A stretch of DNA of 64,000 bases from Desulfotomaculum sp. (GTDB taxonomy: Bacteria; Bacillota; Desulfotomaculia; Desulfotomaculales; Nap2-2B): positions 22,110-86,109 of the forward strand of contig DOTD01000073.1 of assembly GCA_003513005.1 (NCBI GenBank), given 5' to 3'. The translations under genes and the position numbers were made by a program. Each line of letters begins with the position of its first letter. Position 1 is the stretch's first letter. Of the stretch, positions 17,170 to 33,614 are shown piece after piece. The notes beneath the pieces are model-generated. The model was not told the origin of the DNA and searched no databases. It was given only the letters and a program-made list of their open reading frames with translations.

Positions 17170-17529
17170 GACTGAGCCCGGCCTGGTTCACATCTTCTCG
17201 GCAATGGAGAAATGCACGAGCTACAAACCCTGGCACGATAAGACCACCGGCAAGACATCCCTCAAATATGATGGGCAAGGTCTCCATCAAGATGTACGAC
17301 AAATTCGGAATCGTGCTCCGGATCGAAACAACCACCAATGATGTCTCCGGTGTTCAGGCGTATGCGTAAAGTTCAACATCTTGACGTGAGCAGGGATAAC
17401 AAGGTCGCACCGATGAAAAAGAACATTTACAGTCTCTATGTCCTGGCCAGGGGAGAGTTTAACATCCGGGGTTTTCAGAACAAGATGATCCGTAAATTCA
17501 TCGCAAGGCTGTTATCACTACCGGCTTAA
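17170..17529 (+). pseudogene. Frameshifted fragments of a transposase-like/mobile-element-associated gene
   Basis: Three frames together read GLVHIFSAMEKCTSYKPW.., ..SIKMYDKFGIVLRIETTTNDVS and ..RKVQHLDVSRDNKVAPMKKNIYSL..GEFNIRGFQNKMIRKF. The segments are colinear but interrupted by a frameshift, a stop and internal deletions. The family assignment is from memory only. Confidence 0.35.
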
Positions 17530-18037
17530 AAACAAGAGCCCTCTTTATCATCCCGAATTTGGCCGGTTTAGGGGTTTCTGCTGTGTAATGATGGGTGTAC
17601 CAGCCCTCTGTGCAACCTATGCCTACCCTGTATCTCTGGGTTGGCAAACCTCTAATGATATAGCTGCCGTTCTCATCCGTCCTCGTCCCGACACCACCGC
17701 CGCCGGCCCCGTATTCTGCCCGGACGTAGGCGTTGGCTAGGGGGTTGCCGTTTTCGTCAGTCACTGTGCCGGAATTATTATCCGTGCCGAAGTATAATTG
17801 TTTTATCGATTCGTACAGCGGCTTAAAATCTGCCGGCAATTCCTCCTCGGGAGTACCTTGTGTAACTATTTCATCTTTAAGCTGGTTAAAAAACAACACA
17901 TATGAATTTTTCAAGCCCGGGTACGCGTCAGCAAACGTACCGTACTCAGCTCTTATTGGAAAACAGGTTAGTAAAACTAATGTCAGGCACAAAAATACCC
18001 TGATCGGCAAACTGCTGCTTATCTTTCTGTAAAACAA
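17498..18037 (-). CDS. Secreted protein with a CarboxypepD_reg-like beta-sandwich; probably 3'-truncated by the adjacent mobile-element remnant
   Basis: Has a signal peptide (..LLTCFPIRA/EYG) and GTVTDENGNPLANAYVRA...TRTDENGSYIIRGLP. The C-terminal tail overlaps the end of the transposase-like fragment, and no anchor module remains. Confidence 0.5.
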   Translation of the reverse strand: MFYRKISSSLPIRVFLCLTLVLLTCFPIRAEYGTFADAYPGLKNSYVLFFNQLKDEIVTQGTPEEELPADFKPLYESIKQLYFGTDNNSGTVTDENGNPLANAYVRAEYGAGGGGVGTRTDENGSYIIRGLPTQRYRVGIGCTEGWYTHHYTAETPKPAKFGMIKRALVFKPVVITALR

Positions 18038-18103
18038 GTTTTTTCCTCTGTTTGTTATAAAAATGTTTAGTACAATACAATAATTAACTTAATGATTAAC
18101 TAT

Positions 18104-18147
18104 CCTGAAATTAATCTTGCTTTAGGGAGGTCAACTGCCTACGTGCT
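18104..18147. repeat. Copy C of the ~48-nt intergenic repeat family
   Basis: Sequence cctgaaattaatcttgctttagggaggtcaactgcctacgtgct. Confidence 0.6.
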
Positions 18148-18224
18148 TAATAATCGCCTTCTATAAATACAGGGGAACGAATCTTGTGTATTTTTTTCCT
18201 ATCCCATAGTCAGCTTCGCTAACG

Positions 18225-18253
18225 AGGAAGCAAAAAGTACGTCCCCTTGCTTC
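18225..18253 (+). repeat. 29-nt hairpin repeat, right copy (aggaagcaaaaagtacgtccccttgcttc)
   Basis: Matches 14923-14951 at 28 of 29 positions. It is followed by a second ccccttgcttc unit. It lies just downstream of the metalloprotease stop codon. Confidence 0.8.
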
Positions 18254-18266
18254 CCCCTTGCTTCCC

Positions 18267-20468
18267 CTATTGCTGTACACCAATGTTGGAGGCCACCCGG
18301 AGCAGATCCAGAATGTTAACAACCCCGTCATAATTTACATCTGCAATTTGGGATTGAGGAGTCACCGGACCCATCACACTTGCCATCCATAAAAGGTCCA
18401 AAATATTTATAGAACCGTCCTGGTTCATATCCCCGACCAGTCCATAAAGATATCTTATCCCGGCAATATCGTCAGGTTCCAATGTTCTTGCTCTTGACTC
18501 GCCGGTGGCGCAATATCCGTACATTGTTTTTTCTCTGTCTTCAGTTCCGTAAAGGTCAAGCAATCCAAAAGCATGACCAAACTCATGTGTGGTGATTTCC
18601 TGTGTGTCATACTGCCCGGGTGGGTTAACAGCTGTGCTCCAGTTGTAATAATCGCTTAATTCCGTATCACTCTCCAGAATATTATTCGGATGGGCGGTAT
18701 TAAAGTGAGTCCAGGTTTGGGCCAGCCAATCTGTATATCCTATATTTACCCATATAACAGAATTTTCCGAATCTATGCCTGTAGTTGTTTTATTCGTAGC
18801 TCCGCCGTACTTGAATAGAAATTTCGACCCTGCGCTATTCCAGGTGTTTGCGGCTGCCTTAATCGAATTTTCTTCTCCCGCGCAGTCCGCCGTGTTTGCG
18901 TTAACTTTATAGGTCAGTTTATTCCCGGGCACTGTTCCTCCCATGCAGGAGAATGTAACCCTGAACAAAGACGGGTTACTTACGAGATTGTCACTTGTAA
19001 TAACATAGAGATTTCCTGCTCCATCATCTGCATTATAGCTGCTTGCCCCTCCGGGCACAAGGCAGCTAATCTGGTCATCGCTCCACGATTTTATAGTGGC
19101 ATAAGTAAATATAATGTTTCCCTGGCCGGCCCAGAACGCCACATCTCCCTGGGAGGAACCGAAGCTGCTGCCGCTGATGGTTACCTCTGTGCTGTCTTCG
19201 GCAGCTTCATAAGTAGTTAAGTCTTTAGCCACGGCCCGCCCGGAATCAGGTGAAACACCGGTTATTTCCGGAAGCGGCCCACTATATTTTTCAACTAATA
19301 CATTATCAACGAAAGTACCTTTGTCATTATTAGTTTCGTCACTGTAAAAACAGAAACCAACCCATACCTGGGACTGCCCGCATACTTCGTCCAGGGGTAA
19401 ATATTCCTGGCGCCAGGGAGTCCAGTCTCCAGGACGGTAATAACCGTAAAAATCTACATTGTCTACTGAGTAGCCATAATAAAAACTTTCGTAAGGATTT
19501 CCGTCTTGATCGTAGCCTTCTTCTGCAGATTTTGTCCAGTTATCAAAGGTCATCCTGGCGCTGGTGGCGTCGCTTAAATCAAACGGCCCGTAAACCATCC
19601 AGGCATCCATATTATTCTGGTAATTGTCAACGGCCGGGTTAAGGTCACCGCAAACGTCCTGGCATGTTCCTGCGCACCAGGCGCTGTAGCTGCCGGTATA
19701 TGGTTGATAGCTTTCTTTACCCCAGGTATAAGAGCAATCAGGCGCCCCATAAAGATCCCATTTCGGATCCGCAGGCCAGTCTGATTCAAAGCCTTCATCC
19801 AGTATTGTTGTCCAGTAGGGCTGGCTGGCGCTGCTGCTTCCGGACAAGGCAGAATCCTGCTTTTCAGGCTGAACATTGTTTGAAATAAAAGACCTCCCGT
19901 TTTGAGATAGAGGAAAAGATTGCCGCGTAGTATATACCTGTTCCGTTACTGTTTCTTCTTTTTTAACCTTCTGTTTTTCCTCTATTTTGTCTGAGATCAA
20001 AGCAGAAATGTCTTTGACTGTCACATTTAAACCCACTATTTTATCTTTTTGTACTGTGTATTTCCCTTGTCTGGCGCCGGCAAGCTCGTAATATTTACCA
20101 CTGGCTTTTAAAAAGGCTAATATTTCTTCTCCTTTTTGAAATACAGGCGTATCAGATACCCGGCAGGTTATTTCCCCTACTGTTCCCCCTGGAACTTTTA
20201 TAATAACTTTCTCATCCCCTGCCCCTTTAAATAGTTCCTCTTTTGAAACAGTGACATAAGTATAAATTTTCTTGTCTTCCCATCCGGATTGAATAGCTGT
20301 AACTTCACCGGTCATAATAATCTGTGCTTCCGCGGCCAAAGTCCCCAGGTCTTTTTTTATGATCGTGGCCTGCGCCTTTTCCGAGCTGAATAAAACAAAA
20401 AAAGACATAAAGAAAAACACCAGCAAAACGAAAATATTGTAGTTGTTTAGTTTTATTTTGCGTGTCAT
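18267..20468 (-). CDS. Secreted metzincin-type zinc metalloprotease with a jelly-roll (MAM/choice-of-anchor-J-like) domain, an IPT/TIG-like domain and a C-terminal dockerin
   Basis: The N-terminus has a signal or anchor helix. The zinc motif is THEFGHAFGLLD, followed by the Met-turn KTMYGY. The C-terminus reads GDMNQDGSINILDLLWMASVMGP..ADVNYDGVVNILDLLRVASNIG (two EF-hand-like dockerin repeats). Confidence 0.75.
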   Translation of the reverse strand: MTRKIKLNNYNIFVLLVFFFMSFFVLFSSEKAQATIIKKDLGTLAAEAQIIMTGEVTAIQSGWEDKKIYTYVTVSKEELFKGAGDEKVIIKVPGGTVGEITCRVSDTPVFQKGEEILAFLKASGKYYELAGARQGKYTVQKDKIVGLNVTVKDISALISDKIEEKQKVKKEETVTEQVYTTRQSFPLSQNGRSFISNNVQPEKQDSALSGSSSASQPYWTTILDEGFESDWPADPKWDLYGAPDCSYTWGKESYQPYTGSYSAWCAGTCQDVCGDLNPAVDNYQNNMDAWMVYGPFDLSDATSARMTFDNWTKSAEEGYDQDGNPYESFYYGYSVDNVDFYGYYRPGDWTPWRQEYLPLDEVCGQSQVWVGFCFYSDETNNDKGTFVDNVLVEKYSGPLPEITGVSPDSGRAVAKDLTTYEAAEDSTEVTISGSSFGSSQGDVAFWAGQGNIIFTYATIKSWSDDQISCLVPGGASSYNADDGAGNLYVITSDNLVSNPSLFRVTFSCMGGTVPGNKLTYKVNANTADCAGEENSIKAAANTWNSAGSKFLFKYGGATNKTTTGIDSENSVIWVNIGYTDWLAQTWTHFNTAHPNNILESDTELSDYYNWSTAVNPPGQYDTQEITTHEFGHAFGLLDLYGTEDREKTMYGYCATGESRARTLEPDDIAGIRYLYGLVGDMNQDGSINILDLLWMASVMGPVTPQSQIADVNYDGVVNILDLLRVASNIGVQQ

Positions 20469-20528
20469 TTTTTACACCCCGCTTTTTTAAAATAGGACAC
20501 CTGCCTTAACAATTAAAAGTTGGCCTAT

Positions 20529-20553
20529 TATAAAAGAGGCGCCCCGCCTTTTA
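20529..20553 (-). terminator. Weak intrinsic terminator after the 1062-aa SLH protein gene
   Basis: The minus strand reads AAAAGGCG-ggg-CGCCTCTTTTAT. Confidence 0.4.
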
Positions 20554-20622
20554 AGACGGGACACCTTTCCAACTTTCAAATTGCCTGGTTATCAGACATT
20601 TTACCTGCTAACTTTCGTTAGA

Positions 20623-23600
20623 CTAGAGCTTTGCCAGCATACGGGAGACCATGGCGCATACTTCAGCCCTGATAGCGTTTTTCCCGGGGCCGAAAGTACC
20701 GTTGGGATAACCTTTGATAATCCCTTCTTTAACGGCCACAGCAACCGAACCTCTCGCCCAGGCAGAAATGTTATGATCGTCTTTAAAGGCTGTTACTGCA
20801 CTGGCGTTTGCAGCGGCTTCGTCTGCCTTGCCCAAAGCCCTTATTAAAATGGCCGCAATTTCTTCTCTGGTGATTTTCGCGTTTGGTTTGAATAGTCCCT
20901 TTCCATAGCCTTTCACCAGATTTGCCTTGGCTGCCGCTTCAATCACGCCATAGTACCAATCGTTCGGAGATACGTCTTTGAATGTTGGCGTGGCAGGATT
21001 CTCTTCGGCAAGTCCGAGCGCAACAGCGATTATCTTGGTGAACTCAGCTCTCGTGATATCATTTCTAGGCCTGAACGTGCCGTCCGGATATCCGTTAAGA
21101 ATGCCTTTTTCGCACAGTTCCTTGATTACTCCTGATGCCCAGTAGCTTTCCGGAACATCGGTATATGCACAGCCTTTCTTTTCTTCTGCCGCAGTTGTAA
21201 AGCTCCAGTTGAGGCTGGCGTTTTGAGCTGAGCAGTCTGCCCGTTTTACAGTTCCATACGGAATGCTAATGGTATATTTGGTATTAAAGTTAAAGTTGTC
21301 GTGAGCAATGGTTAAGACCTTTCCATCAACAGTTGCCTTTACTCCGCTCACAACATTGTTCTGAGCATCTTTAACGCTTAACTTGGTCAGATCTACGGCC
21401 GCGATATTTTGTTTGAAGGTAACCTTCACAACAGCGTCGATGGCAACGTTTTCAGCGTTTGCCGCAGGCACGTATGTATCGACATTCAGTTCGCACGAGC
21501 TTCCGCCGCCGCCACCACCACCACCACCGCCTGATTTGGTAGTGGTAAAGGCTACGACCTGTCCTTCGCCCCAGCCGGCGGAGTTATGTGCCATTGCCTT
21601 GTATTCATAAGGAGTGTTTGACGTAAGACCGGTGAGAGCGAAACTGAAAGCGCCAGATCCGTATGGACCTGGTGTCTCAACACCCGCGTCCGTCCACTCT
21701 GTTACGCCTTGCTTGCGGTAAACGAACTTGCGCTGGTCGCAATCGGCGCCGCCGACATTGGTGATATTACCGTTTAATGTCGCGCCGCCAGTGGTGATAT
21801 TGGTGGCGCTGCTGGTTGTTACAGTCGGCGGTATCACCTGACAGGTTGCCAGAGTGGTAAAGTATGTTTTTGTTACTACACTCCAGCCTGCAGAGTTGTG
21901 AGCCATTGCACTATATTCATAAGAAGTGTTTAAATCAAGCCCCGTCAGGTTAAAGCTGAATGCGCCTATCCCGAATGTACCTGTCTCAACGCCTGCGTCC
22001 GTCCACTCTGTTACGCCTTGCCTGCGGTAAACAAACTTGCGCTGGTCGCAATCGGCGCCGCCGTTGCTGGTGATGTTCCCTTTTAAGGTTGCGCCGCTGC
22101 AGGTGATATCGGCAGCGTTCTCAGTTGTCACGGTAGGAGCGGTTATTTCTCCGCCGGGTATGGTAAAGCTTCCCTGTGCTTGGACCGCATTTGCAGTGAC
22201 CATCACAGTATATGTTCCCGCCCCGAAGCCGGCTGTGGAGAAAACGAATTCATATTCTCCATTCTGGTTTGTTAACATCTGCCCCAGGGCAAAGATATCT
22301 CCGCCTTTTTCTATCACTATTGCAACAGACACATCTCTTTCCGGAACATCGCCGTATCTTCTTGTCAGGGTTCCGGATGCAGTTACTGTGTCGTTGCCAT
22401 CATTATATTGAAGATCCAGGGTCAAACAATAGACATCAGATGACTGCTTGGTTGTGAAACTCCACTCATGCTCATCGTTGCCCACACCGCCGGACTGTAC
22501 ACAATTATCAGGAATTGTCACCGTGTAAGTAGTCTCGAACTGGAGGGCAGGATGGCTGATATTCAGGGTCCGGCCGTTCAGAGCCGCTGTCACACCCTGC
22601 AGGATGTCGCTCCCGTCACGAATCACTACGCCGCCGCCGTTTAGTGTAACATCCCTGTCAAAAGTAGCGCTTATCTCAGTGTCTGCGTCTACATCAACAC
22701 CCGTTGCGCCGTCAGCAGGCTGGTTACTTTCCACCAGGGGGGGTTCCGGTTCTATACAGAGTGGAGTAGTGAAGTCTACTACTTGACTTTCTCCCCAGCC
22801 GGCGGAGTTGTGCGCCATAGCCTTGTATTCATAAGTAGTATCTGGATCAAGCCCGGTCAGTCCGAAGCTGAAAGCTCCCGTCCCGAATGTACCTGTCTCA
22901 TCACCCGCGTCAATCCAATCCGGGTCGCCTTGCTGGCGGTACTGGAACTTGCGCTCGTTGCAATCTGCCCCGTTGATGATATTTCCGTTTAAGGTAGCGC
23001 TGTTGCAGGTGATATCGGTAGCTCCATTATCAGTTCCTACTTCGGGTTCTGTTTGTTGCTGGACAATCAGCCCCATGGTGTTCAGAATAGCTTCCAGCTG
23101 ATCCTTTTGATCCTGAGTTAACTGGTCGTACATTGCGGAAAGGCAATCCACCGTCAGCCCGCAGGCTGTCAGGTCATCCCGTGTTAAGTTGCCGTCACTT
23201 ACACTAACGAGCCAATCCAAAATGGTATCAAACTGATCTCTTACACCGTCTGTAACTACCAGTCCGGGTCCGAACTGGATCTGAGACAGCTTAACCATAA
23301 ACATCACAAACTCATCAAAGGAGATCCCCTTTGAATTGAGCTGGGCTAAGGTTTCCGGGTTTATTGAATTATCGTGAAGCCAATTGATAAGCCCGTTCAA
23401 ATATTCCTCGTCGGATACCTCGTCGGGGCTGACTGGATCAATGGCGTTTAGGAAACCTTGATACCCAGTAGCGCCGCCGCTGGGATTATTGGGTAGATAG
23501 CCCGATACATCGTCAACCAAACCGATTTTAATATTTAAATAAGTATTTTCATCTATATCCAAGGTGTCTTTTAACGCTGCTTCTTCTTCATCACTCAAGC

Positions 23601-23811
23601 AATTAAAGAAATTCTGCGCCATTGCATCGCTGATTTCTACCGCCTGTTCCAACTGTTCCGGGGTTAGATTATGCAATTGCCCGAAGAAGGGGCCGAGATC
23701 ACTTATTAATTGCCCATAATCATCACTCGCCAGAGACATACCAGCGCCGGTAATCAGCAAAATTGCCGCAAGGCATAGTGCCAAGATTATTTTTTTGAAG
23801 GATCCTCTCAT
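20623..23811 (-). CDS. Large S-layer-homology-anchored multidomain surface protein
   Basis: Start chosen at ATG 23811 (SD GAGGTGA), giving the signal peptide MRGSFKKIILALCLAAILLITGAGMSLA. The domain order is an unrecognised ~230-aa helical module, an FN3-like domain, Big_5, an Ig-like domain, two FN3-like domains, a Gly10 linker, Big_5, then three SLH repeats. The FN3-like domains read ATLNGNI...YEYKAMAHNSAGWG. The Big_5 (SbsA-type Ig) domains read ..TYTVTIP..WSFTT. The SLH repeats read YTDVPESYWASGVI.., FKDVSPNDWYYGVI.. and FKDDHNISAWARGSV... Confidence 0.8.
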   Translation of the reverse strand: MRGSFKKIILALCLAAILLITGAGMSLASDDYGQLISDLGPFFGQLHNLTPEQLEQAVEISDAMAQNFFNCLSDEEEAALKDTLDIDENTYLNIKIGLVDDVSGYLPNNPSGGATGYQGFLNAIDPVSPDEVSDEEYLNGLINWLHDNSINPETLAQLNSKGISFDEFVMFMVKLSQIQFGPGLVVTDGVRDQFDTILDWLVSVSDGNLTRDDLTACGLTVDCLSAMYDQLTQDQKDQLEAILNTMGLIVQQQTEPEVGTDNGATDITCNSATLNGNIINGADCNERKFQYRQQGDPDWIDAGDETGTFGTGAFSFGLTGLDPDTTYEYKAMAHNSAGWGESQVVDFTTPLCIEPEPPLVESNQPADGATGVDVDADTEISATFDRDVTLNGGGVVIRDGSDILQGVTAALNGRTLNISHPALQFETTYTVTIPDNCVQSGGVGNDEHEWSFTTKQSSDVYCLTLDLQYNDGNDTVTASGTLTRRYGDVPERDVSVAIVIEKGGDIFALGQMLTNQNGEYEFVFSTAGFGAGTYTVMVTANAVQAQGSFTIPGGEITAPTVTTENAADITCSGATLKGNITSNGGADCDQRKFVYRRQGVTEWTDAGVETGTFGIGAFSFNLTGLDLNTSYEYSAMAHNSAGWSVVTKTYFTTLATCQVIPPTVTTSSATNITTGGATLNGNITNVGGADCDQRKFVYRKQGVTEWTDAGVETPGPYGSGAFSFALTGLTSNTPYEYKAMAHNSAGWGEGQVVAFTTTKSGGGGGGGGGGSSCELNVDTYVPAANAENVAIDAVVKVTFKQNIAAVDLTKLSVKDAQNNVVSGVKATVDGKVLTIAHDNFNFNTKYTISIPYGTVKRADCSAQNASLNWSFTTAAEEKKGCAYTDVPESYWASGVIKELCEKGILNGYPDGTFRPRNDITRAEFTKIIAVALGLAEENPATPTFKDVSPNDWYYGVIEAAAKANLVKGYGKGLFKPNAKITREEIAAILIRALGKADEAAANASAVTAFKDDHNISAWARGSVAVAVKEGIIKGYPNGTFGPGKNAIRAEVCAMVSRMLAKL
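21502..21531 (-). repeat. (GGN)10 triplet tract encoding a Gly10 linker
   Basis: The plus strand reads tccgccgccgccaccaccaccaccaccgcc. Confidence 0.9.
21540..22160 (-). repeat. Tandem in-frame duplication (period 309 bp) of an FN3-like domain
   Basis: The landmark gcgtccgtccactctgttacgcc occurs at 21686 and 21995. The flanking DNA is nearly identical by eye. Confidence 0.8.
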
Positions 23812-23836
23812 CGTTTTTATGCTCACCTCACTTTTT

Positions 23837-25612
23837 TTAAATTACCAGGTCCGCTACAACCTGCTCAGCAAATGTTGAATACGTGGCATTAGGATCTTGT
23901 TTTAAGACAAATAGCTCAACCTTATAGGTTCCTGTCTCCGTGGGAGCATTAATATCAAAACTGATATTCGCAACCCCGCCTGCAGCAATATTCTCTGTTT
24001 TGCTAGTAAAGCTCTTTACTTCGATAACCCCATCTGGTCTTGTTTTTGTGACCTGACAGCCTACCACCATCGAGTCGTAATTGATGTTTGTGAGGTTGGT
24101 TAGTATTGCCGTCACCGTCCTAGTGCTACCGCTGCCGGTAATCTGAGGGGCGGAAAATTTTAACGGGAAATTATAGATATGGAAAGTTCCTTCCACTATT
24201 ACCGGATCTCCTACACCGGGCGTAGCTGTTACCTGCACAGTGTAATCAGCCACTACCGGCAGGTCAATCGCAGGTGTGTATAACTGAATAAAGCTGGAGT
24301 CGCTTTCAGGAGTATATGTGGCTACAGTATTGCCTCCTGAATTTTTGATGACTACCGACCAGTTGACGGCTTCTGGTGTTCCTCCCCTGTCGGCTGATCC
24401 GTCAATCATCAGGGGCCGGTCCGGGCTGATATAGGCGCCGGTCAGGTTGACTGTTACATTCAGCTGCTGCGGCGGAGGCGCCGCTAAGGTGGTAAAAGAC
24501 CAGGTGGTCTGATCATTTGTCTGGCCGCCATTAATGACCGCTCCGGCAGGAATGGTGACAGTATATGTCGTGCTATAGGCAAACGCGTTATGCGCAATGG
24601 TCAGTGTCCTGCTGTCTCCCCCAAGGGTGGCGTTCACGCCTGCCACCGGGTTGCTACCCGCATCCTTGATTGTGACTCCGTCAAGATTGCCGACTGTTAC
24701 ATCCATATTAGAAGTTGCCTGCACTGGAGCGTTAAGAGCTACGTTCGTCGCTCCATTAAGGGGCTGAACCGGCGTGAGAACAGGCTTTTCCGGCGGAGGC
24801 GCCGCTAAGGTGGTAAAAGACCAGGTGGTCTGATCATTTGTCTGGCCGCCATTAATGACCGCTCCGGCAGGAATGGTTACAGTATATGTCGTGCTGTAAT
24901 TAAACGCGTTATGAGCAATGGTCAGAGTCTTGTTGTCCACACCCAGGGTGGCGCTCACGCCTGCCACCGGGTTGTTACCCGCGTCCTTGATTGTGACTCC
25001 GGCAAGGTTGACTACTGTTACATCCATATTAGAAATTGCCTGCACTGGAGCGTTAAGAGCTACGTTCGTCGCTCCATTTAAGGGCTGAACCGGCGTGATA
25101 ACAGGCTTTGGCACTACCGCGCCGTTTATAGTGATTGTGTCCTCTGTCGTCGTATGACTAATGCTGGCTCCGCCTTCTCCTCCCAGGAGAGTTGAACCAG
25201 GCACAAAAGAAAGGTTTGCCGTGCCGGCGGCTAATGCTGTAAATGTAATTACTGCCGCCGTGCCGCCACTTCCCGTATATGCATTTGCAGGTACCAGCGC
25301 TATCGAAGCATAGTTAATATTGCCGGTTGTATTATTAATTTCATTTTGAACAGGAAAAGGACTTGTAAAAATATTTCCATCGGTCACCTGATCAGCCCGC
25401 AGCAATGATGGGTTAAACTGCAGGTTGAACTGCGTGCCCATTACAGCGGTCGCATTATTCAAGACTATGTCTACGGTGAACTGGTCACCCACATTCACCG
25501 CAGCAGGCGCCTGAGGGCCGATGGAAGGGACAGCAGCCCAGGCAGGAATTGCAACACAAAGCATTCCCAGCAACAGGGCGATAAACAAAATGGAGATCTT
25601 CCTGTTAAGCAT
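23837..25612 (-). CDS. Secreted cohesin-domain protein (cohesin, two Big_5 domains, C-terminal Ig-like domains); no SLH or membrane anchor
   Basis: Signal peptide ..CVAIPAWA/AVP. Residues ~35-170 fit the cohesin jelly-roll pattern: VNVGDQFTVDIVLNNATAVMGTQFNLQFNPSLLRADQVTDGNIF...GTAAVITFTALAAGTANLSF. Two 107-aa Big_5 repeats follow. Confidence 0.7.
   Translation of the reverse strand: MLNRKISILFIALLLGMLCVAIPAWAAVPSIGPQAPAAVNVGDQFTVDIVLNNATAVMGTQFNLQFNPSLLRADQVTDGNIFTSPFPVQNEINNTTGNINYASIALVPANAYTGSGGTAAVITFTALAAGTANLSFVPGSTLLGGEGGASISHTTTEDTITINGAVVPKPVITPVQPLNGATNVALNAPVQAISNMDVTVVNLAGVTIKDAGNNPVAGVSATLGVDNKTLTIAHNAFNYSTTYTVTIPAGAVINGGQTNDQTTWSFTTLAAPPPEKPVLTPVQPLNGATNVALNAPVQATSNMDVTVGNLDGVTIKDAGSNPVAGVNATLGGDSRTLTIAHNAFAYSTTYTVTIPAGAVINGGQTNDQTTWSFTTLAAPPPQQLNVTVNLTGAYISPDRPLMIDGSADRGGTPEAVNWSVVIKNSGGNTVATYTPESDSSFIQLYTPAIDLPVVADYTVQVTATPGVGDPVIVEGTFHIYNFPLKFSAPQITGSGSTRTVTAILTNLTNINYDSMVVGCQVTKTRPDGVIEVKSFTSKTENIAAGGVANISFDINAPTETGTYKVELFVLKQDPNATYSTFAEQVVADLVI
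24471..25112 (-). repeat. Tandem in-frame duplication (period 321 bp = 107 aa) of a Big_5 domain
   Basis: The string ggcggaggcgccgctaaggtggtaaaagaccaggtggtctgatcatttgtctggccgccattaatgaccgctccggcaggaatggt occurs at 24471 and again at 24792. Confidence 0.9.
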
Positions 25613-25760: not shown

Positions 25761-26957
25761 TCACATTCCAATATTCTGGGCTACCCTCAACAGGTCGAGA
25801 ATATTTACCTGGCTGTCTTTATTCACGTCGGCCCATAGTGATTCGCCGCTGACAGGACCCATTTTTGAAGCCATCCAGAGCAGATCCAGGATATTAATTG
25901 CCTTGTCTGAGTTCATGTCTCCCAGTCTCAGAGTGACCGGCGCCATTTGTTTGACCTCATCCTGGCCAAGGCTGACCGGCGTATCTACTTCTTTCCAACT
26001 CCAGTCGGCTTTGTCAAAGGATATCTGGCATGCGCCTGCAGGCAGCCCGCTCAGGGTGTAGTAGCCGTTGCTTGCTGATATGGCGGAAGCAACCACCTGG
26101 TTATTGATTTCCGCTTTTATCTCCGAACCGGCGTGGTTTGGTTCCGGATCGGCCTGAGAAACCTTCTCCAGATAAACATAGCCATAAATGCCTGCGCCTT
26201 CTACCGTGCCCAGCTTTTTGAGAATTTCAATCAGGTCATTCCGCTGTTGATCAGTTAACTGGCCGATGGCCGCCTGAAACATGGCGCAGCTAAAACCCAC
26301 TTCTTCCAGATCCTGCCTTGTTATCTTGCTGACCGCTATAATATACTGATCAACCAGCGCATCAAAATTAGCGCATATTATGTTGCCGGCGGCATCTATT
26401 TTTAGCTGCTTAAACATCTGTATAAAAAATTCCAACTGTTCTATTTCTCCCCACCGCCAGGTGTCATTCATCTCAACCCGGTAGTCGTTGGGAAGAGTCA
26501 ACCTCAGTTGCTCGTATAAACCGGCCAAATAATCCAGGTCACGGTTTACCGGCTGAACACTGTTGACAAAACCATCGTACCCGGCTTGGCCGCCGCTCTG
26601 GTGGCTATTGACGTATTCTTCAATAGTCCAGGGCCATCTCGTACCGCCAAAATCCAGGTGAAACTTGTTCATCAGGGCTTGCTGCCGCTGCGCCGTCAGG
26701 ACGGGCTGGTTCCCGTTGATACCGTAAAAAACCGCCTCGTTGAGCTTCTTGCCGATATTCACCAGCTCTTCCATTTCACTGGCGTTTAAAAGAGCCAGCC
26801 CGTCCCAGACATCGCTCATTGCTTCCACACAGTCAGTGCTGTCTAATTCATTTATACCTCCGGCACCGCCGGCCATGGCCTTCTGCTGACTTGAAGCCAT
26901 CAGAAGCACGATTAATAAAACAGCGCTTAAAATGACTGTCCCTGCTTTTTTTACCAT
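25761..26957 (-). CDS. Secreted dockerin protein: the same unrecognised helical module as in the 1062-aa SLH protein, a CarboxypepD_reg-like domain, then a dockerin
   Basis: A signal peptide is present. GGQAGYDGFVNSVQPV and ITRQDLEEVGFSCAMFQAAIGQLTDQQRNDLIEILKKLG parallel GGATGYQGFLNAIDPV and LTRDDLTACGLTVDCLSAMYDQLTQDQKDQLEAILNTMG. The C-terminus reads GDMNSDKAINILDLLWMASKMGP..ADVNKDSQVNILDLLRVAQNIG. Confidence 0.7.
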   Translation of the reverse strand: MVKKAGTVILSAVLLIVLLMASSQQKAMAGGAGGINELDSTDCVEAMSDVWDGLALLNASEMEELVNIGKKLNEAVFYGINGNQPVLTAQRQQALMNKFHLDFGGTRWPWTIEEYVNSHQSGGQAGYDGFVNSVQPVNRDLDYLAGLYEQLRLTLPNDYRVEMNDTWRWGEIEQLEFFIQMFKQLKIDAAGNIICANFDALVDQYIIAVSKITRQDLEEVGFSCAMFQAAIGQLTDQQRNDLIEILKKLGTVEGAGIYGYVYLEKVSQADPEPNHAGSEIKAEINNQVVASAISASNGYYTLSGLPAGACQISFDKADWSWKEVDTPVSLGQDEVKQMAPVTLRLGDMNSDKAINILDLLWMASKMGPVSGESLWADVNKDSQVNILDLLRVAQNIGM

Positions 26958-27008
26958 AAATGTACCTCCTTCCTCTCAAACCTTTTATAACGACTTAACT
27001 TGCAATTA

Positions 27009-27857
27009 TCATTTTCCTATGTTCGCTGCTACCTTGAGCAAGTCGAGAATATTTACCTGACCGTCACCGTTTACATCCGCTTTTGCCGCATCTCCAGACG
27101 CAGGTCCCATTACCGAGGCCATCCAGAGCAGGTCCAGGATATTTATACCGCTGTCGCCGTTCATATCACCCAGATACAAGGTTACTGTCCCGGCGCCGGT
27201 AGACCCGCTTTCTTCCACTGTTACAGTCTTGGTGGTCGTTTTCCAGCTCCCGCCTGTGTGGCTGAATTCCAGCGTGCAACTACCGGCTGACACACCTGTA
27301 ACCGTATATGACCCGTCGGCGGCCGTGACAAATGTGCCGACAACCGATCCTCCCTGTGTAGCCTTCACTTGCGTACCCGAGTCGTCCGCCGGCACTGACG
27401 TACTGATTCTTTGTAAAACGGCAAAGCCGTTTATTGAGATGTTGGGGATAGTCAGGTTTGCCTGCCTTATAGTGAACATTGAGCCCTGGTAAAGTACTGT
27501 TGTTACTGGGCTGGTCTGCGCTGTATAGATAACGGCGCCGATTTTCACTTTGAACTGGATCTGCTTACCGATGTCATTGGCTGTACCATTGACTATCAGC
27601 TTTTCTACAAAAGGATCGCCTACCGGAATGCCGTACTGCCCGTTTTGGAAGGCTAACTCCCCTCTTTTTTCGCCGTCTATATAGGCCTCTATAGTCCCGC
27701 TTGGAACTGGATTATTCAGATCGTCTTTAACTTGCCCATAGAAGCGATCAAAAGTACCGACTAGCTCATCCGCATAGACGGCGCCGGCAAAACCCAGTAT
27801 GAAAACTAATAACAAATAAACAAAAAGAACTTTTTTCACCCAAACCGATCCCATCAT
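27009..27857 (-). CDS. Secreted dockerin protein: shared N-terminal beta module, a CarboxypepD_reg-like domain, then a dockerin
   Basis: Start chosen at ATG 27857 (SD GGGTGGTGG). The C-terminus reads GDMNGDSGINILDLLWMASVMGP..ADVNGDGQVNILDLLKVAANIG. Confidence 0.7.
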   Translation of the reverse strand: MMGSVWVKKVLFVYLLLVFILGFAGAVYADELVGTFDRFYGQVKDDLNNPVPSGTIEAYIDGEKRGELAFQNGQYGIPVGDPFVEKLIVNGTANDIGKQIQFKVKIGAVIYTAQTSPVTTVLYQGSMFTIRQANLTIPNISINGFAVLQRISTSVPADDSGTQVKATQGGSVVGTFVTAADGSYTVTGVSAGSCTLEFSHTGGSWKTTTKTVTVEESGSTGAGTVTLYLGDMNGDSGINILDLLWMASVMGPASGDAAKADVNGDGQVNILDLLKVAANIGK

Positions 27858-27867
27858 TTCCACCACC

Positions 27868-29157
27868 CTACTTAATTGAGCCAAGGAGCCTGTCGATCAT
27901 TGCCGCAGCTTCGGCGCGGGTCACATTTTTCCCAGGCTTGAAGGAACCATCCGGATAACCTGTGATAACCCCTTTCTGCACCGTTTGATCAACTGCTTCG
28001 GCAGCCCATCCGGGAATATCGCCGCTGTCGTTAAACTGCGCTTTCTGCACTGTTTGCTGGGCTGATTTTTCGTTTAAAACACGCGCCATGATTGTGGCCA
28101 GCTCAACACGGGTGATTTGCTTCTGCGGCATAAAAACGGTTTTTCCTTCTTTTCCAGGATACCCTTTAAGCAAACCGGCGTGAACCACGGCAGCCACAGG
28201 ATAACCTGCCCATTCCGGGATGCCGGCGGCGTCACTGAATCCGGATATATCCTGGTTGCTTCCGTTTTCCAGGTCCAGAGCCCTGTCGATAATGGCGGCG
28301 CATTCCGCCCGGCTGATTGGGTTATTCGGCCGGAAGGTCTTATCTTCATAACCGGAGATTACACCCTGTCCGGCCATTTTTTGAATTACCGCCGCTGCCC
28401 AGTGCCCCTGGATATCGGATAAGACAACTGTTTGTTGTTCCGGATGACTAATCTTATAATCAAATACAGAAACTGCGCTGAAGAGATTGTCTTTTAACGA
28501 AACTGCCTTAATTACAGTGTCTTGACTAATGCTGATGGGCTCTTTGTATTCTTTTCTGGCGCTGCTGGTCTTAGGATCGGTACTGTCGGAAGTGAAGTAG
28601 ATTACTGTCTGGGCAGTGGAACAGGACAGCTCAATTTTGACGTTTTCTGCGTATGTTCCCGCTGCCGGACTGGCAGCCGGAGAGGCGGGCGCCTGCGTTG
28701 AGCCCTGTCCTCCGGAACCTCCGCCCTGCTGACCTGAACCGCTTGAGGTATAATTTACAGTGATCAGCAGCCGCGAATCCAACCCTTCGAAGCCGCCATC
28801 CTTAAAAGTGATTTCCTTTTCTGCGCCGGCATTATATTCTTTGCCGTCAATTACAGCTTTAAAACTGATTGCTTTACCAATGTCGCTGCTGTCAATAGGG
28901 GTTATGTTCGCCTTATTTGCCTGATCCAGCGAAATATCAACCTGCCCGCCGGCAACAGCCGCATCGGTTACATATTTGTCTCCAATAAATACTTCCAGGC
29001 TTCCCGTGTTTACGGCGCTTCCTTTCTGGTCAACCACTTTGCCCAAGATCACCATTGGCATCAAGGGCATTTCCGCCGCCAGCGCCGTATAAGCAATACC
29101 GAACAAGAGCAGGAAGCACAGCAATACAGCAGTCAGTTTGTTTGTTGCTTTTTTCAG
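27868..29157 (-). CDS. SLH-anchored surface protein: shared N-terminal beta module, a Gly/Ser/Gln linker, a chitobiase-C-terminal-like (Fn3-associated) domain, then three SLH repeats
   Basis: The track start (TTG at 29124) gives no charged n-region and has no SD. An in-frame CTG at 29157, 6 nt after AAAGGAGGAG, gives (M)KKATNKLTAVLLCFLLLFGIAYTALA/AE, a textbook signal peptide. Confidence 0.7.
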   Translation of the reverse strand: MKKATNKLTAVLLCFLLLFGIAYTALAAEMPLMPMVILGKVVDQKGSAVNTGSLEVFIGDKYVTDAAVAGGQVDISLDQANKANITPIDSSDIGKAISFKAVIDGKEYNAGAEKEITFKDGGFEGLDSRLLITVNYTSSGSGQQGGGSGGQGSTQAPASPAASPAAGTYAENVKIELSCSTAQTVIYFTSDSTDPKTSSARKEYKEPISISQDTVIKAVSLKDNLFSAVSVFDYKISHPEQQTVVLSDIQGHWAAAVIQKMAGQGVISGYEDKTFRPNNPISRAECAAIIDRALDLENGSNQDISGFSDAAGIPEWAGYPVAAVVHAGLLKGYPGKEGKTVFMPQKQITRVELATIMARVLNEKSAQQTVQKAQFNDSGDIPGWAAEAVDQTVQKGVITGYPDGSFKPGKNVTRAEAAAMIDRLLGSIK

Positions 29158-29240
29158 TTTTAACTCCTCCTTTTAAGTTGTTTGCGGATGCTTTTTTAAT
29201 CTGGTCACGGATCTACAACTGGTAACCATGACGTGTCGCT

Positions 29241-30263
29241 TTACAGGCTGTCCAGCAAGCGGTCAATCATTGCTGCGGCCTCCGACCGGGTCACTTCTTT
29301 TTGCGGACTGAAGGTACCGTCTGAATATCCTTTTACCAACCCGTACTCAGCGGCGGAGCGAACTTCCTCCCGGGCCCATTCCGGAATCTTGTCCTGGTCC
29401 GAAAAGTTTGCCAGATCGCTGTTTTTCTGCAATCCCTTTTGCGAAGCAGCCCGGCTTAAAATAACCGCCAGTTCCGTCCTTGTAACTTTCTTGTCCGGCC
29501 CAAAGTCCTTGCTTCCGTCGGACACCGGATAACCGGAGAACAGCCCGGCAGCTACCGCCTGGGCGACAGCTCCCTGCGCCCACTCGGGAATTGCGCCTTT
29601 GTCCCCGAACACAGAAAGCGCCTCCGGACCGGCTGCAGGCAAGTCCAGGGCGCGGGACAGGATTAGTGCGCATTCCGCCCGGCTAACCGGCTTGTCCGGA
29701 CAAAAAGTCCCGTCCGGATAACCGCTAATCAGCCCCCGGTTAACCATCCGGCTAATTGAGCCTTCCGACCAGTGACCGGTAAGATCTGAAAAGGGGGTTA
29801 GCTTGCTGACCGACGGATCTTGTCCACCCGGACAACTTTCGTCAACGATCAGGGTGATTGCCTGCTTTGCTTTTGATTCCCAGACAATTTTTGGCGGATC
29901 TGTTTTGGCCGGGCATTCCCGGCCGGCAGATTCCACTTTGAAAGTAACTTCCCTGCCAGTTAGATCCTCGTTTGCTTTGTAAACCAGTAATCTGGCTATG
30001 TAGGGATCTTCGGCGGGCAAACCAAATTTTCCTTCCTGAAAAGGCAACTGCCCGCATATCTCACCGTCGACATAAGCCTTCACCGTTCCTGAAGCCACCG
30101 GCTGCCCCGTCTCCGTCTTCACCATACCGTAATACATAGCAGGATACTGCATCTGCTGCTGGTTCTGACCTTCTTCCGCCAGGGCTGCCGTGCCGATAAA
30201 AAAAACCACCGCAACAAGAGCCAAAGATGTTAAAAACCACTGCTGCTTTAACTTGAGAGTCAT
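29241..30263 (-). CDS. SLH-anchored surface protein: shared N-terminal beta module plus three SLH repeats
   Basis: Signal peptide ..FFIGTAALA/EE. YYGMVKTETGQPVASGTVKAYVDGEICGQLPFQEGKFGLP parallels FYGQVKDDLNNPVPSGTIEAYIDGEKRGELAFQNGQYGIP in the 27009 gene. The SLH repeats read FSDLTGHWSEGSI.., FGDKGAIPEWAQGAV.. and FSDQDKIPEWAREEV... Confidence 0.8.
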   Translation of the reverse strand: MTLKLKQQWFLTSLALVAVVFFIGTAALAEEGQNQQQMQYPAMYYGMVKTETGQPVASGTVKAYVDGEICGQLPFQEGKFGLPAEDPYIARLLVYKANEDLTGREVTFKVESAGRECPAKTDPPKIVWESKAKQAITLIVDESCPGGQDPSVSKLTPFSDLTGHWSEGSISRMVNRGLISGYPDGTFCPDKPVSRAECALILSRALDLPAAGPEALSVFGDKGAIPEWAQGAVAQAVAAGLFSGYPVSDGSKDFGPDKKVTRTELAVILSRAASQKGLQKNSDLANFSDQDKIPEWAREEVRSAAEYGLVKGYSDGTFSPQKEVTRSEAAAMIDRLLDSL

Positions 30264-30294
30264 TGCTTTTTTTACTCCCTGCCTTTTAGAATCG

Positions 30295-30372
30295 GTACCT
30301 TACTCGCGGGAGACAAGCTCCCGCAAGTAAGGTACTGGAAACGATCTTTTTAAAAACAGATGTGCTGTTTTT
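30295..30372 (-). terminator. Double stem-loop terminator region after the 1015-aa gene
   Basis: The minus strand reads AAAAACAG-cacat-CTGTTTTT immediately after the stop. A near-perfect ~18-bp stem follows: GTACCTTACTTGCGGGAG-cttgt-CTCCCGCGAGTAAGGTAC. Confidence 0.6.
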
Positions 30373-33300
30373 TTAAGGCTGGACATCCGCCGATTTCAGA
30401 ATTGTGTTTGAAGTCAGGGTCTGCGGCGAAGTTATATACAGCCAGTATGCGTCACCGTTGAACCCGTATAGCGAGGAGTCTACATAATAGCCGCCATATG
30501 TGTTGCCGTTGACGCTTGCTGCTTCGAAGGCCCCCAGGTTGCCCATTGAATTCGGGGCGCCTTGTAATGTAATAGCCACAGGACCGTACGGACCGGGCGA
30601 GGTAAAGCTGTTCAGACCTTTGCCGCCCCAGTTGACCAGAGTCTTGCAGTCGGCGCAGGCTGATCCCAGCATCCGGGAAAGTGTATCTCCCTGGGTCAGC
30701 GCGTCACCACAGACGCATTCAGTATTCGGCGGGCAGGGGTATGTTACCGTGCCATATGCGGTTGTAAGCTGCTCGCCAGCCCGATAATGAATGTCCTCAC
30801 TAAAGGACGGTCCCACCAAGTTCCAGCCAAGGTTCAGCGGACGCGAACCGGGCATTTCCACACCTGTGGAGCGGGCGAAGACATATCTTGCCTGAACACA
30901 ACTTTCGGAACCGCAATCATTGGATGTGCAGTAACCGCCATTGGTCCAGTCCTGAGTCATATTAAGCACGTAGCCGTACTGCGGCCTCAACTGGTAAGCC
31001 GGGTCAGTAATCTGCGCCCACGGCCCGCCAGGTAAGTTCTTGTCGTAAATCAGCATGTCGGAGAAGTATGATCCGCCCAGCAGGGCGCTCATAGTGCCGG
31101 CGCCGGCCAGTTCCTTCGGTGTGGAAATAAGCTGCCAGGTATTCGGCCTTAATACACGCACCAGTTCAACGGGGCTGTTGTAAGTAATTAGTTTGGTGCC
31201 CCAAACGTGCTTTTCGGGGTCGACAACCTTCACTGCTAACGGACCGCAGTAACTCCACGGCACGTAGACAAAGAAGTCGGACTTGGTCTCATTTATATTG
31301 GGATGGAGGTAGGTGTCATTATTTCCTTTGCTGCCGGCCATGTTAAAGGCCAGCCTGTTGCCATCCGTAAAGGCCTCAAGATCCCAGGAAGCTTCGCTAA
31401 TAACAGTTTGCAGAGACGAATCTAACAGCTCAACACGCAGGGTGGCGGAAGTGCGGTTAGGATCTGCCAGAATCGTTCCGAGTAACCTCGGATCGTAATG
31501 TACAGATATCTTTACCGGCCAACCGGCCTTGGCGGGTTCTTCGTAATTGGGGTCATTGAGGTACTGACTTGGAATCTGATCGCAGGGAACCAGCGGTGTA
31601 ACCTCAAGAATGCATATCAGGCAGTTTACTTCCAGGCAGCAGATTGCATCAAGCTGGTTCACACCGTTGATAATGGCGCCGGCTATAATTCTTACATTAC
31701 CGCCCTCGTCGGCCTTGAAATAGACTGTAACTTCAGATGCGCCGGGCGCGATCTGCGTGTAGTCAATTTCATGCGCTCCCGAGTCATTGCCGTCAAGAAT
31801 TGTGCCGAATGGCGCCTCGGGGTTAATTGTGCCGGTTGGGTCATCGGGGTCACATACTATGCTCTTTAAATCAATCTTCAGAGCGGCTAAATTATCCCCG
31901 CAGGGTACTTTATTCGGCGTTGCGTTGCCAAATTTATCACGCAGGATAATACGCACGGGTACATATGCGCTGCAGTCCACCTGAGTACCTACCTGGGTGA
32001 CGGTGATGTACTTGGGATCGCCGGCCACAGGTAAAATAGTTTCCGGATCGGAATAGACCCAGGCATGTTCAAGAGCTTCTAAATCCTCGTTGAAAAAGCC
32101 GCGGAGGAAATGGTTGTCGTCTGTTTCTCTTACATAGGCCATATCCTCCAGAGACTCCACCGGCACCAGATAGTCGGCGGTGTCAAAGTAGTATTGGACG
32201 CTTGCATCCTGTGGGGTATCTTTAACTTCGATGGTCCTGGCCACGATGCTATGACTTACGCCAGCGACACCCGGGACCACGATCGAAGCTTCGAAGAAAC
32301 CCCTGTCAATAATTAGATGCGTAATGGGATCGGTTACATTGACCGTGTGTGTGATCACAGGCGCAATGCAATCGCCTGAACTGGGATCTTGATGCGTATA
32401 CGGTTCACCAAGGCAGCCATTGTCTACAATATCGCCCAGGTTGGGATCGCTTACACATGCCGGTACAAAGTACGGTGTGCCAGCCGGGCAAAGAGCGCAC
32501 GGCGGGTATACAGGATTGGTAGTTTGCACGACATATTCAATAATAACCGGCCATGTGGTAAGCGGCCACGGGTAATCAAGCCATGTTTCCGTTTGCTGCC
32601 CAAATTCATCCAGGAGGTAACCACCCTCCGTCCTGAATACATGACCTGTGACGTTTACTCTGGCGCCCGCTACTTTACAATCATCAATGGTATCAATAGA
32701 TATCCTGCCAACTGTCAGAACCACATCCAGGTTCAGGCATTTAGGCGTAAAGCAGCTCTTGCTGTGTTTGATATTAACGCAATAATCCTCTTTCGGGGCT
32801 TTCGTGTTGTGAACAACCAGCCTTTCAATCCTAAAGTCGGTTACCTTGCCGATTGCCGGGATTAACTGTCTCTCAACAGTCAGGTATACACGGTCGATTA
32901 CCGAACCGTCACTCAGGGTTATGTTCTCACGAAGGTCCGGTATTACCTTTGTCAGATATTCAACGCCGTTCACTGTAACCCAGACATCTACGGACTTGCC
33001 CTGAAGGCCGTCCAGGTTGTGATCCTCCGGGTCGATTGTCGTGGGAGTGTAAGCCGGGTCAATAGCCTCATTAGCGTCATTTACCGCCGGATCTGCTGCA
33101 GTGCTGTAACGCATCGGGCCAAATGGAAAATCAAGAACTATGCTGTTGAGAGTCGAGCCGTCCGGTGCAGTTGCCAGTTTACCAAGGAGATTGCCCTCGG
33201 CAAAGAGATTCACATCAATATCCATATTTGTGCCCGTGACGGTGTAAGCATAGGTATGGTCAGCCTTAACCACATAGCTCGGGCCGCCGGTTATCGGGTT

Positions 33301-33420
33301 GTCGCCAGCTACCATATTGATGCTCTCGGCAAGGGCTATGCCGGCAAAAATAAAACAGGATAAGGCAATTATTGCCAGGATAACGGCTATTCTGCCCCAC
33401 TTGGTTACCCTTTTTGTCAC
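30373..33420 (-). CDS. Orphan ~1015-aa cysteine-rich secreted protein (one Big_1-like Ig segment; otherwise no recognisable domain or anchor)
   Basis: Start chosen at GTG 33420 (8 nt after AAGGAGGG), giving (M)TKRVTKWGRIAVILAIIALSCFIFAGIALA/ES. I count 26 Cys after the signal peptide, including CXXC-like pairs PPCALCP, ECVCG and SACADC. There is no SLH, dockerin, cohesin or TM anchor. Confidence 0.75.
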   Translation of the reverse strand: MTKRVTKWGRIAVILAIIALSCFIFAGIALAESINMVAGDNPITGGPSYVVKADHTYAYTVTGTNMDIDVNLFAEGNLLGKLATAPDGSTLNSIVLDFPFGPMRYSTAADPAVNDANEAIDPAYTPTTIDPEDHNLDGLQGKSVDVWVTVNGVEYLTKVIPDLRENITLSDGSVIDRVYLTVERQLIPAIGKVTDFRIERLVVHNTKAPKEDYCVNIKHSKSCFTPKCLNLDVVLTVGRISIDTIDDCKVAGARVNVTGHVFRTEGGYLLDEFGQQTETWLDYPWPLTTWPVIIEYVVQTTNPVYPPCALCPAGTPYFVPACVSDPNLGDIVDNGCLGEPYTHQDPSSGDCIAPVITHTVNVTDPITHLIIDRGFFEASIVVPGVAGVSHSIVARTIEVKDTPQDASVQYYFDTADYLVPVESLEDMAYVRETDDNHFLRGFFNEDLEALEHAWVYSDPETILPVAGDPKYITVTQVGTQVDCSAYVPVRIILRDKFGNATPNKVPCGDNLAALKIDLKSIVCDPDDPTGTINPEAPFGTILDGNDSGAHEIDYTQIAPGASEVTVYFKADEGGNVRIIAGAIINGVNQLDAICCLEVNCLICILEVTPLVPCDQIPSQYLNDPNYEEPAKAGWPVKISVHYDPRLLGTILADPNRTSATLRVELLDSSLQTVISEASWDLEAFTDGNRLAFNMAGSKGNNDTYLHPNINETKSDFFVYVPWSYCGPLAVKVVDPEKHVWGTKLITYNSPVELVRVLRPNTWQLISTPKELAGAGTMSALLGGSYFSDMLIYDKNLPGGPWAQITDPAYQLRPQYGYVLNMTQDWTNGGYCTSNDCGSESCVQARYVFARSTGVEMPGSRPLNLGWNLVGPSFSEDIHYRAGEQLTTAYGTVTYPCPPNTECVCGDALTQGDTLSRMLGSACADCKTLVNWGGKGLNSFTSPGPYGPVAITLQGAPNSMGNLGAFEAASVNGNTYGGYYVDSSLYGFNGDAYWLYITSPQTLTSNTILKSADVQP

Positions 33421-33536
33421 TAAGATATCCCTCCTTATAAGAAATAGTAACATCACGCGTGGTAACTTTTCTTTAAAAAACTACTGCTAAACTACTGCCG
33501 CTCTTTCTTCAAACTCCATTCCCTGCCTCTGAGTAA

Positions 33537-33590: not shown

Positions 33591-33614
33591 CAATCAGCAA
33601 GATCTCCGGATCCT

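Follow-up and report, generated by a model that had tools for sequence, protein, structure and literature searches.

The window analysed here, a stretch of 64,000 nucleotides from a Desulfotomaculum sp. genome assembly (contig DOTD01000073.1, positions 22,110 to 86,109), contains a locus of secreted proteins that probably form a minimal, non-cellulosomal cohesin-dockerin system for displaying hydrolases and binding modules on the cell wall. We give this reading a probability of about 60%. The locus (17498..33456) consists of nine consecutive genes, all on the minus strand and all encoding a protein with a signal peptide; they are numbered g1 to g9 by rising coordinate. One protein (g4) carries a single cohesin, three (g2, g5 and g6) end in a dockerin, and three (g3, g7 and g8) carry three S-layer homology (SLH) stretches each. 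All counts of cohesins, dockerins and anchors in this genome refer to the 64 kb of the window. The original prediction, which was made from the sequence alone, had listed this set of parts, with a metzincin protease, CarboxypepD_reg, FN3 and Big_5 modules as cargo. The Pfam and hydrophobic-segment scans agree with the list of parts, and Pfam found the cargo modules. A strongly hydrophobic segment is present at the N-terminus of each protein (9/9), and the sole extra one is a Cys-rich stretch near residue 600 of g9 (1027-aa version). Coordinates and domain contents are collected in Table 1.

The cohesin of g4 is recognized by the Pfam family PF00963 at residues 38-162 (E=8.9e-14, 52.3 bits against a cut-off of 24.1). 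The single g4 sequence found no match among solved structures. A profile built from eight orthologues together with two cohesins of more distant origin matched 39 solved cohesins, the best being 3l8q (E=7e-12), a type II cohesin dyad of Acetivibrio cellulolyticus. An AlphaFold2 model of residues 1-170 had a predicted local distance difference test score (pLDDT) of 90.3 and is all-beta after the signal peptide. In a Foldseek search of the PDB with this model, each of the top 50 matches was a cohesin, with target template modelling (TM) scores of 0.65-0.82. These matches cover type I and type II cellulosomal cohesins, cohesins of Clostridium perfringens, and the Archaeoglobus fulgidus cohesin 2xdh, which was the second-best match (TM 0.82). 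The identity of the g4 module to any solved cohesin is only 10-25%. On the model, it is a real cohesin with the nine-stranded beta-sandwich fold. The cohesin profile search and the fold had been named beforehand as tests that could refute the original prediction, and both turned out in its favor.

Custom hidden Markov models (HMMs) run over the whole window found one cohesin and three dockerins. Outside the cohesin, the two Big_5 domains of g4 are a 321-nt tandem duplication (24470..25109) with 92% identity between the copies. The copy number in relatives ranges from one to three, which makes the stalk variable in length. The Big_5 domains of g4 are 39-48% identical to those of g3. Pfam and a hydrophobicity and motif scan found no SLH, dockerin, sortase signal or membrane anchor in g4, and its stop codon lies 25 nt from the start of g3. 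As had been predicted, the cohesin and SLH parts are split over two proteins, in a departure from the classical anchoring scaffoldin.

The three dockerins match Dockerin_1 (PF00404) with E values of 3.9e-9 (g2), 1.8e-8 (g5) and 9.7e-10 (g6) and scores of 34.9-38.9 bits against a cut-off of 22.9. Their pairwise identity is 59-68% over 62-70 aa, which bears out the shared signature noticed in the sequence. Each of the six calcium loops has the form DxNxDxxxNxxD and is followed by LL (those of g6 lie at 27129..27167 and 27039..27077), and g2, g5 and g6 each have the two loop-helix segments of a dockerin. NILDLL occurs in both helices of each dockerin, which makes the module nearly symmetrical. 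Symmetry of this kind accompanies a dual binding mode in the dockerins of cellulosomes. A six-frame search of the 64 kb with the strict calcium-loop pattern found seven sites, six of which belong to the three dockerins. The seventh (17110..17148) lies about 350 nt downstream of g1 in a stretch with no long open reading frame (ORF). It reads DFNADGVIDIDDL and resembles a different dockerin subtype found in one related locus (L008, 12814..13080). It is probably the remnant of a lost dockerin.

A metagenome scan with an alignment of the dockerins found 8 loci. Dockerins of the same genome have the same signature, which changes from lineage to lineage: most lineages have NIL..WMAS/AA, L011 has DIL, and L012 and L014 have DIS..WMVH/VY..RV(I/V). 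This pattern fits a single cognate cohesin in each genome. The original prediction suggested that the three dockerin proteins compete for a single cohesin. One cohesin was indeed found, and the claim holds for these 64 kb only.

The three SLH repeats of g3, g7 and g8 form the C-terminal end of each protein, and SLH motifs of the TRAE type occur in g3 as ITRAEF, ITREEI and AIRAEV. No recognizable sortase signal was found in the nine proteins, in which a loose LPxTG-like pattern matched internal sites only, and none of the nine has a C-terminal hydrophobic segment. For g6, g3 and g7, the Pfam scan was run on the ORF versions 27009..27884, 20623..23826 and 27868..29124, respectively. Neither Pfam nor NCBIfam detected a glycoside hydrolase, polysaccharide lyase, carbohydrate esterase or carbohydrate-binding module (CBM) family in any of the nine proteins, in agreement with what had been predicted. 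NCBIfam gave nothing beyond partial matches of the SLH and metalloprotease types, and the CHB_HEX_C_1 domain of g7 is a non-catalytic accessory domain. An ordinary cellulosome is ruled out by the single cohesin and by the lack of any carbohydrate-active enzyme (CAZyme) in Pfam and NCBIfam.

The organization of the locus is conserved. The order g9-g8-g7-g6-g5-g4-g3, usually followed by the protease gene g2, is kept in at least seven further lineages (L002 with L003 and L004, L005 with L006 and L007, L011, L012, L014, L029 and L030), all of them uncultured Bacillota assemblies. A synteny comparison had been suggested together with the original prediction, and it supports a conserved unit. The cohesin protein is 43-67% identical across these lineages. 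The group L002-L004 includes a locus from a JGI sample with SCADC-labelled contigs, L005-L007 includes the NCBI metagenome-assembled genome (MAG) GCA_002441385.1, and L014 is Firmicutes bacterium UBA4053. The cohesin gene of L014 at first suggested a frameshift, which was rejected; the break is an assembly gap within a Big_5 repeat. The adjacency of g4 and g3 is strict, and in all related lineages the cohesin gene is immediately preceded by two dockerin genes. The nearest cohesins outside the clade, in Chloroflexota, Methanophagales, Halobacteriota and Desulfobacterales MAGs, also lie beside dockerin genes.

One lineage (L008-L010) joins the two halves of the system. Its protein P0013 has the cohesin fused to FN3, Big_5 and SLH domains, which is the classical architecture of an anchoring scaffoldin. 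P0013 corresponds to the g4 cohesin plus the last 400 aa of g3, and it lacks the C-terminal module of g4 and the N-terminal module of g3. Both of these modules are present in all unfused lineages. The L008 locus appears to be rearranged because it is flanked on both sides by transposase genes (40..1242 and 11744..12367; DDE_Tnp_ISAZ013 and Transposase_mut) and lacks the first two genes of the cluster. In a distant locus, L013, a Cohesin-Big_5 protein without an anchor comes before a protein with Big_5 and SLH. Three cohesin ORFs, 1147..3084 and 1..807 among them, are present in its 9.6 kb, a more elaborate system than that of the window. One L013 protein combines Big_1, Invasin_D3, a cohesin and a weak dockerin and would be an adaptor-like scaffoldin.

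These features suggest how the system might work. The SLH triplets would fix g3, g7 and g8 to a wall polymer. Each of the dockerins of g2, g5 and g6 would bind the g4 cohesin in a calcium-dependent manner, one at a time; we infer this binding from the co-location of the genes and the uniform, lineage-specific signature. The wall would carry an exchangeable mix of the metzincin-type protease g2 and two non-catalytic proteins, g5 and g6. g4 would be held at the surface jointly with g3, as a split anchoring scaffoldin, or through its own C-terminal module. The split scaffoldin is suggested because g4 and g3 are always adjacent and are fused in one lineage. A less probable extension, compatible with the presence of both modules in every unfused lineage and the absence of both from the fusion, is that the C-terminal beta-module of g4 (~200 aa) and the helical N-terminal module of g3 (~230 aa) form a new non-covalent pair, or that the g4 module is a new wall or S-layer anchor. 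The statement of the original prediction that the nine genes supply every part of a display system was too strong, as the link from g4 to the wall is missing in this genome.

The modules at the N-termini of these proteins, here called heads, are shared among anchored and dockerin-bearing members. The helical N-terminal modules of g3 (aa 102-249) and g5 (aa 112-252) are paralogous (E=2e-10). Those of g6 (aa 39-121) and g8 (aa 44-127) are 40% identical (E=1e-18), and g6 also matches g7 (E=5e-4). g5 and g6 have in common an end made of CarboxypepD_reg and dockerin. Since the head of g5 resembles that of g3, and the head of g6 those of g7 and g8, the same types of head occur on a fixed SLH base or on a plug-in dockerin. 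The head modules would thus be shown at the surface in two forms, fixed or plugged in. A relaxed Pfam search with six modules gave sub-threshold noise only, and no family was matched by the heads, by the two N-terminal modules of g2 or by the C-terminal module of g4.

The only recognizable enzyme of the locus is g2, which matches Peptidase_M10 (E=5e-10, 39.9 bits against a cut-off of 24). Its zinc motif reads HEFGHAFGLLD followed by TMYG, with Asp in place of the third His of HExxHxxGxxH. Asp as the third zinc ligand is known from snapalysin-type metzincins. The motif is kept in the orthologues of L002 and L014, and L005 has the variant HEFGHWLMLLD. Compared with the PDB, g2 gave weak sequence matches to catalytic domains of matrix metalloproteinases. 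In relatives, the same dockerin subtype is carried by a hydrolase of the metallo-beta-lactamase fold (Lactamase_B; L005 18032..19048, L008, and L033 650..1642), by an S8 subtilase (L035, 386..2620), and by CHB_HEX_C or FN3 proteins. No glycoside hydrolase was seen on the proteins of relatives that carry this dockerin subtype. With a metzincin-type M10 protease, an S8 subtilase and a metallo-beta-lactamase-fold hydrolase as its catalytic members across the clade, the cargo favors extracellular proteolysis or surface-protein processing over carbohydrate degradation. Surface-bound hydrolysis and binding is the likely role. Adhesion or contact with partner cells, the role first put forward, stays speculation, and hydrolases are indicated no less strongly by the cargo of the clade.

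Several points weigh against the display system. As g4 has no recognizable anchor, it may simply be released. Further cohesins or dockerins may be encoded elsewhere in the genome, beyond the 64 kb. A csaB-type pyruvyl transferase, which relates to a pyruvylated wall polymer as the SLH ligand, is absent among the window proteins scanned. The hairpin and the promoter-like site upstream of g2, which suggest a separate transcript for the protease, are pattern matches only. The predicted 8-3-6-5 face of the cohesin is more variable than the opposite face in most lineage pairs, whatever their dockerin type; we do not count this comparison as evidence because the binding face varies even between lineages that share a dockerin type. 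Finally, the biological role is weakly grounded because no function can be assigned to g9 or to five module families.

The lack of an anchor leads to a cell-free alternative, in which g4 is secreted and released and forms soluble one-to-one complexes with g2, g5 or g6. The Big_5 domains and the C-terminal module of g4 would then bind a target away from the cell, and the SLH proteins of the operon would be wall proteins in their own right. Scaffoldins with neither a dockerin nor a wall module have been described (PMC12484212), and the unanchored architecture of g4 is kept in eight lineages. Against release stand the strict g4-g3 adjacency and the direct joining of cohesin and SLH in one lineage. 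A single cohesin also cannot gather several enzymes, which is the usual gain from a free scaffoldin. We consider a cell-free system unlikely, although it is the main rival.

It is improbable that the locus serves mainly to build the envelope (S-layer, sheath or spore surface), with g9 and the SLH and Big_5 proteins forming a lattice on which the cohesin-dockerin pair is a minor decoration. This idea, which comes close to the S-layer decoration of the original prediction, draws on a related Big_5 protein, P0009, which one source names 'SbsA Ig-like domain-containing protein'; SbsA is an S-layer protein. It also draws on g9, which is large, conserved and secreted and heads the operon, and on the proximity of the locus to ftsH, spoIIE and spoIID. 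g9, on the other hand, has no SLH and no recognizable S-layer family, and nothing links the expression of the locus to sporulation. L008 and L013 retain cohesin, dockerin and SLH parts without g9, which by its distribution appears to be tied to the system by synteny only. No Pfam or NCBIfam family and no PDB sequence match was found for g9. Its protein family has 41 representatives at 50% clustering among 1.84 billion proteins, and none of them has an informative domain. Many of its 27 Cys are invariant in relatives, and CxxCH haem motifs are not among its Cys motifs as read by eye. An AlphaFold model of g9 from five homologues had a low pLDDT (34.5) and was left out of the fold search.

Still less is to be said for the view that the dockerins are not partners of g4 at all, which we regard as very improbable. 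The dockerins would bind cohesins elsewhere, or they would act in a calcium-dependent way to stabilize their proteins or to bind the wall, and the cohesin of g4 would have another ligand. Dockerin-like modules occur in many genomes in which no cohesin matches them (Peer et al. 2009, as summarized in PMC9012536), the comparison of cohesin faces across lineages showed no clean covariation, and 64 kb of the genome have been seen. Such a view does not sit well with the pair of dockerin genes that immediately precedes the cohesin gene in all related lineages, with one lineage-specific signature per genome, or with calcium loops and helix positions that are intact. Binding of the dockerins to the g4 cohesin at the cell surface thus remains the reading that we prefer.

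Table 1. Genes and other features of the cohesin-dockerin locus (window coordinates).
Feature	Position	Strand	Description
g9	30373..33420	-	Secreted protein of ~1015 aa with 27 Cys; first gene of the cluster
g8	29241..30263	-	Signal peptide, N-terminal module common to g6 and g7, three SLH (SLH E=6e-39)
g7	27868..29157	-	429 aa; signal peptide, shared N-terminal module, CHB_HEX_C_1/Fn3_assoc, three SLH (SLH E=4e-39)
g6	27009..27857	-	282 aa; signal peptide, shared N-terminal module, CarboxypepD_reg (E=1e-7), C-terminal dockerin (27012..27170)
g5	25761..26957	-	398 aa; signal peptide, helical N-terminal module, CarboxypepD_reg-like domain, C-terminal dockerin (25764..25922)
g4	23837..25612	-	Signal peptide, single cohesin, two Big_5, C-terminal module of ~200 aa without a family
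Cohesin module of g4	~25118..25534	-	aa 27-165; from Pfam, profile and model
g3	20623..23811	-	1062 aa; signal peptide, helical N-terminal module, three FN3-like domains, two Big_5, three SLH (E=5e-45)
Terminator-like hairpin	20537..20566	-	Between g3 and g2; 13-bp stem followed by a T run; consensus scan
Promoter-like site	20527..20554		Overlaps the hairpin between g3 and g2; consensus scan
g2	18267..20468	-	Signal peptide, two modules without a family, TIG (E=1e-5), metzincin-type catalytic domain, C-terminal dockerin (18273..18431)
g1	17498..18037	-	Small secreted CarboxypepD_reg protein (Pfam E=8.6e-13) without an anchor
Lone dockerin-like calcium loop	17110..17148	-	DFNADGVIDIDDL; in the non-coding stretch downstream of g1

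The intergenic gaps from g8 to g3 are 10-148 nt, and by their arrangement the genes from g9 to g3 look like one transcription unit. The GTG at 33420 is more likely the start of g9 than position 33456, where the original prediction had placed it. This GTG has the Shine-Dalgarno sequence AAGGAGGG 8 nt upstream, and the same start is found in relatives. The best-placed start of g7, the one given in the original prediction, is a CTG (29155..29157), 6-7 nt after a strong Shine-Dalgarno sequence, AAGGAGGAG. With the next in-frame start, a TTG at 29124, the signal peptide would be without its charged part. Of the related loci that were compared, L014 alone has an orthologue of g1 (UBA4053; 19398..20525). 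This protein is much longer; its helical N-terminal module is fuller, and it continues into an SLH repeat. As a result, the g1 of the window looks degraded, and it is probably a decayed member of the cluster.

The window belongs to a metagenome contig (JGI sample 3300010235), and its IMP dehydrogenase groups at 90% identity or more with the enzyme of a MAG named Desulfotomaculum sp. 46_296. The genes flanking the locus include acetyl-CoA synthase/CO dehydrogenase, ftsH, tilS, spoIIE, spoIID and mfd, and the acetyl-CoA synthase/CO dehydrogenase genes with spoIIE and spoIID agree with the Wood-Ljungdahl spore-former that had been predicted. Two opposed genes of the Uma2 family (putative restriction endonuclease-like), at 15186..15776 (+) and 16201..16776 (-), separate the acetyl-CoA synthase operon from the locus. 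Upstream of g9, about 700 nt of AT-rich non-coding DNA (33421..34128) may be a regulatory region. An Rfam search over 15-36 kb matched no RNA element. Between ftsH and the locus, a gene for a small protein with a Cu_amine_oxidN1 domain (34608..35069, minus strand) is found in the same place in L002-L004 and L011. The idea of a horizontally acquired island is unsupported: the G+C fraction of the locus (0.45-0.52) equals that of the window, and the flank on the ftsH side is common to L002-L004.

The literature search, which had been called for as a check on prior description, turned up no description of the locus and no paper about a cohesin-dockerin system in Desulfotomaculum-like bacteria. The locus is nevertheless not new in principle. 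Non-cellulosomal systems are already known (Peer et al. 2009, as cited in PMC5244752 and PMC9012536), and so are scaffoldins without an anchor and peptidases with a dockerin (PMC12484212); to this extent its novelty had been overstated. Cohesin and dockerin modules outside cellulosomes are documented from all three domains of life, mostly with unknown function, according to Peer et al. (2009) as cited in the same two papers. The genomes of anaerobic methanotrophic (ANME) archaea pair dockerins with S-layer proteins and with substrate-binding proteins, and cell contact has been suggested as a role (PMC9012536, PMC5244752). These modules are common outside cellulose degraders, where their role is largely unknown (PMC5244752, PMC9012536), and the locus is a convenient test case. 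It is unusually compact and complete, with a cohesin, three dockerins and three SLH proteins encoded within 16 kb, in addition to a natural fusion variant. The lineages that carry it come from metagenome samples, including a short-chain-alkane-degrading enrichment culture. A few recombinant modules could show the binding partners, the retention of g4 at the surface, and whether the proteases are real cargo. If the proposed module pair or g4 anchor is real, the locus would provide a self-contained and tractable model for non-cellulosomal cohesin-dockerin pairs in syntrophic or acetogenic anaerobes.

Set beside known systems, the locus has the cohesin, the dockerins and the SLH modules; it is not a cellulosome, and in this genome it is not an anchoring scaffoldin. 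Like the non-cellulosomal systems of Archaeoglobus fulgidus (2xdh), of the Clostridium perfringens glycosidases (2jh2, 2vo8 and 2w1n) and of ANME archaea, it has few cohesins per protein, a cargo other than cellulases, and a host that does not degrade cellulose. It differs from them in that all of its parts lie in one conserved operon together with SLH proteins, and in the enzymes that it carries, a metzincin-type protease here and a subtilase or a metallo-beta-lactamase-fold hydrolase in relatives. The anchoring scaffoldins of C. thermocellum (OlpA, OlpC and SdbA) also offer one or few cohesins to dockerin proteins and have three SLH, and the cohesins of OlpA and OlpC (3ul4 and 4dh2) are among the fold matches of the g4 cohesin. 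Their exact architecture occurs in the relative P0013, whereas in the window the cohesin and the SLH are on the separate polypeptides g4 and g3, and no primary scaffoldin, CBM or CAZyme is present. In its lack of a wall module and a dockerin, g4 resembles the cell-free scaffoldins of C. thermocellum, C. clariflavum and A. cellulolyticus (PMC12484212). Those proteins carry several cohesins and assemble glycoside hydrolases, in contrast to g4, which has one cohesin and lies beside an SLH partner. Finally, the joining of a protease through a dockerin is shared with the S8 peptidase of C. thermocellum and the cysteine peptidase of R. flavefaciens (PMC12484212), and L035 has an S8 enzyme as well. 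Unlike these dockerin-bearing peptidases of cellulosomes, the protease of the locus is not a minor accessory but its only recognizable enzyme, a metzincin-type protein with the motif HExxHxxGxxD.

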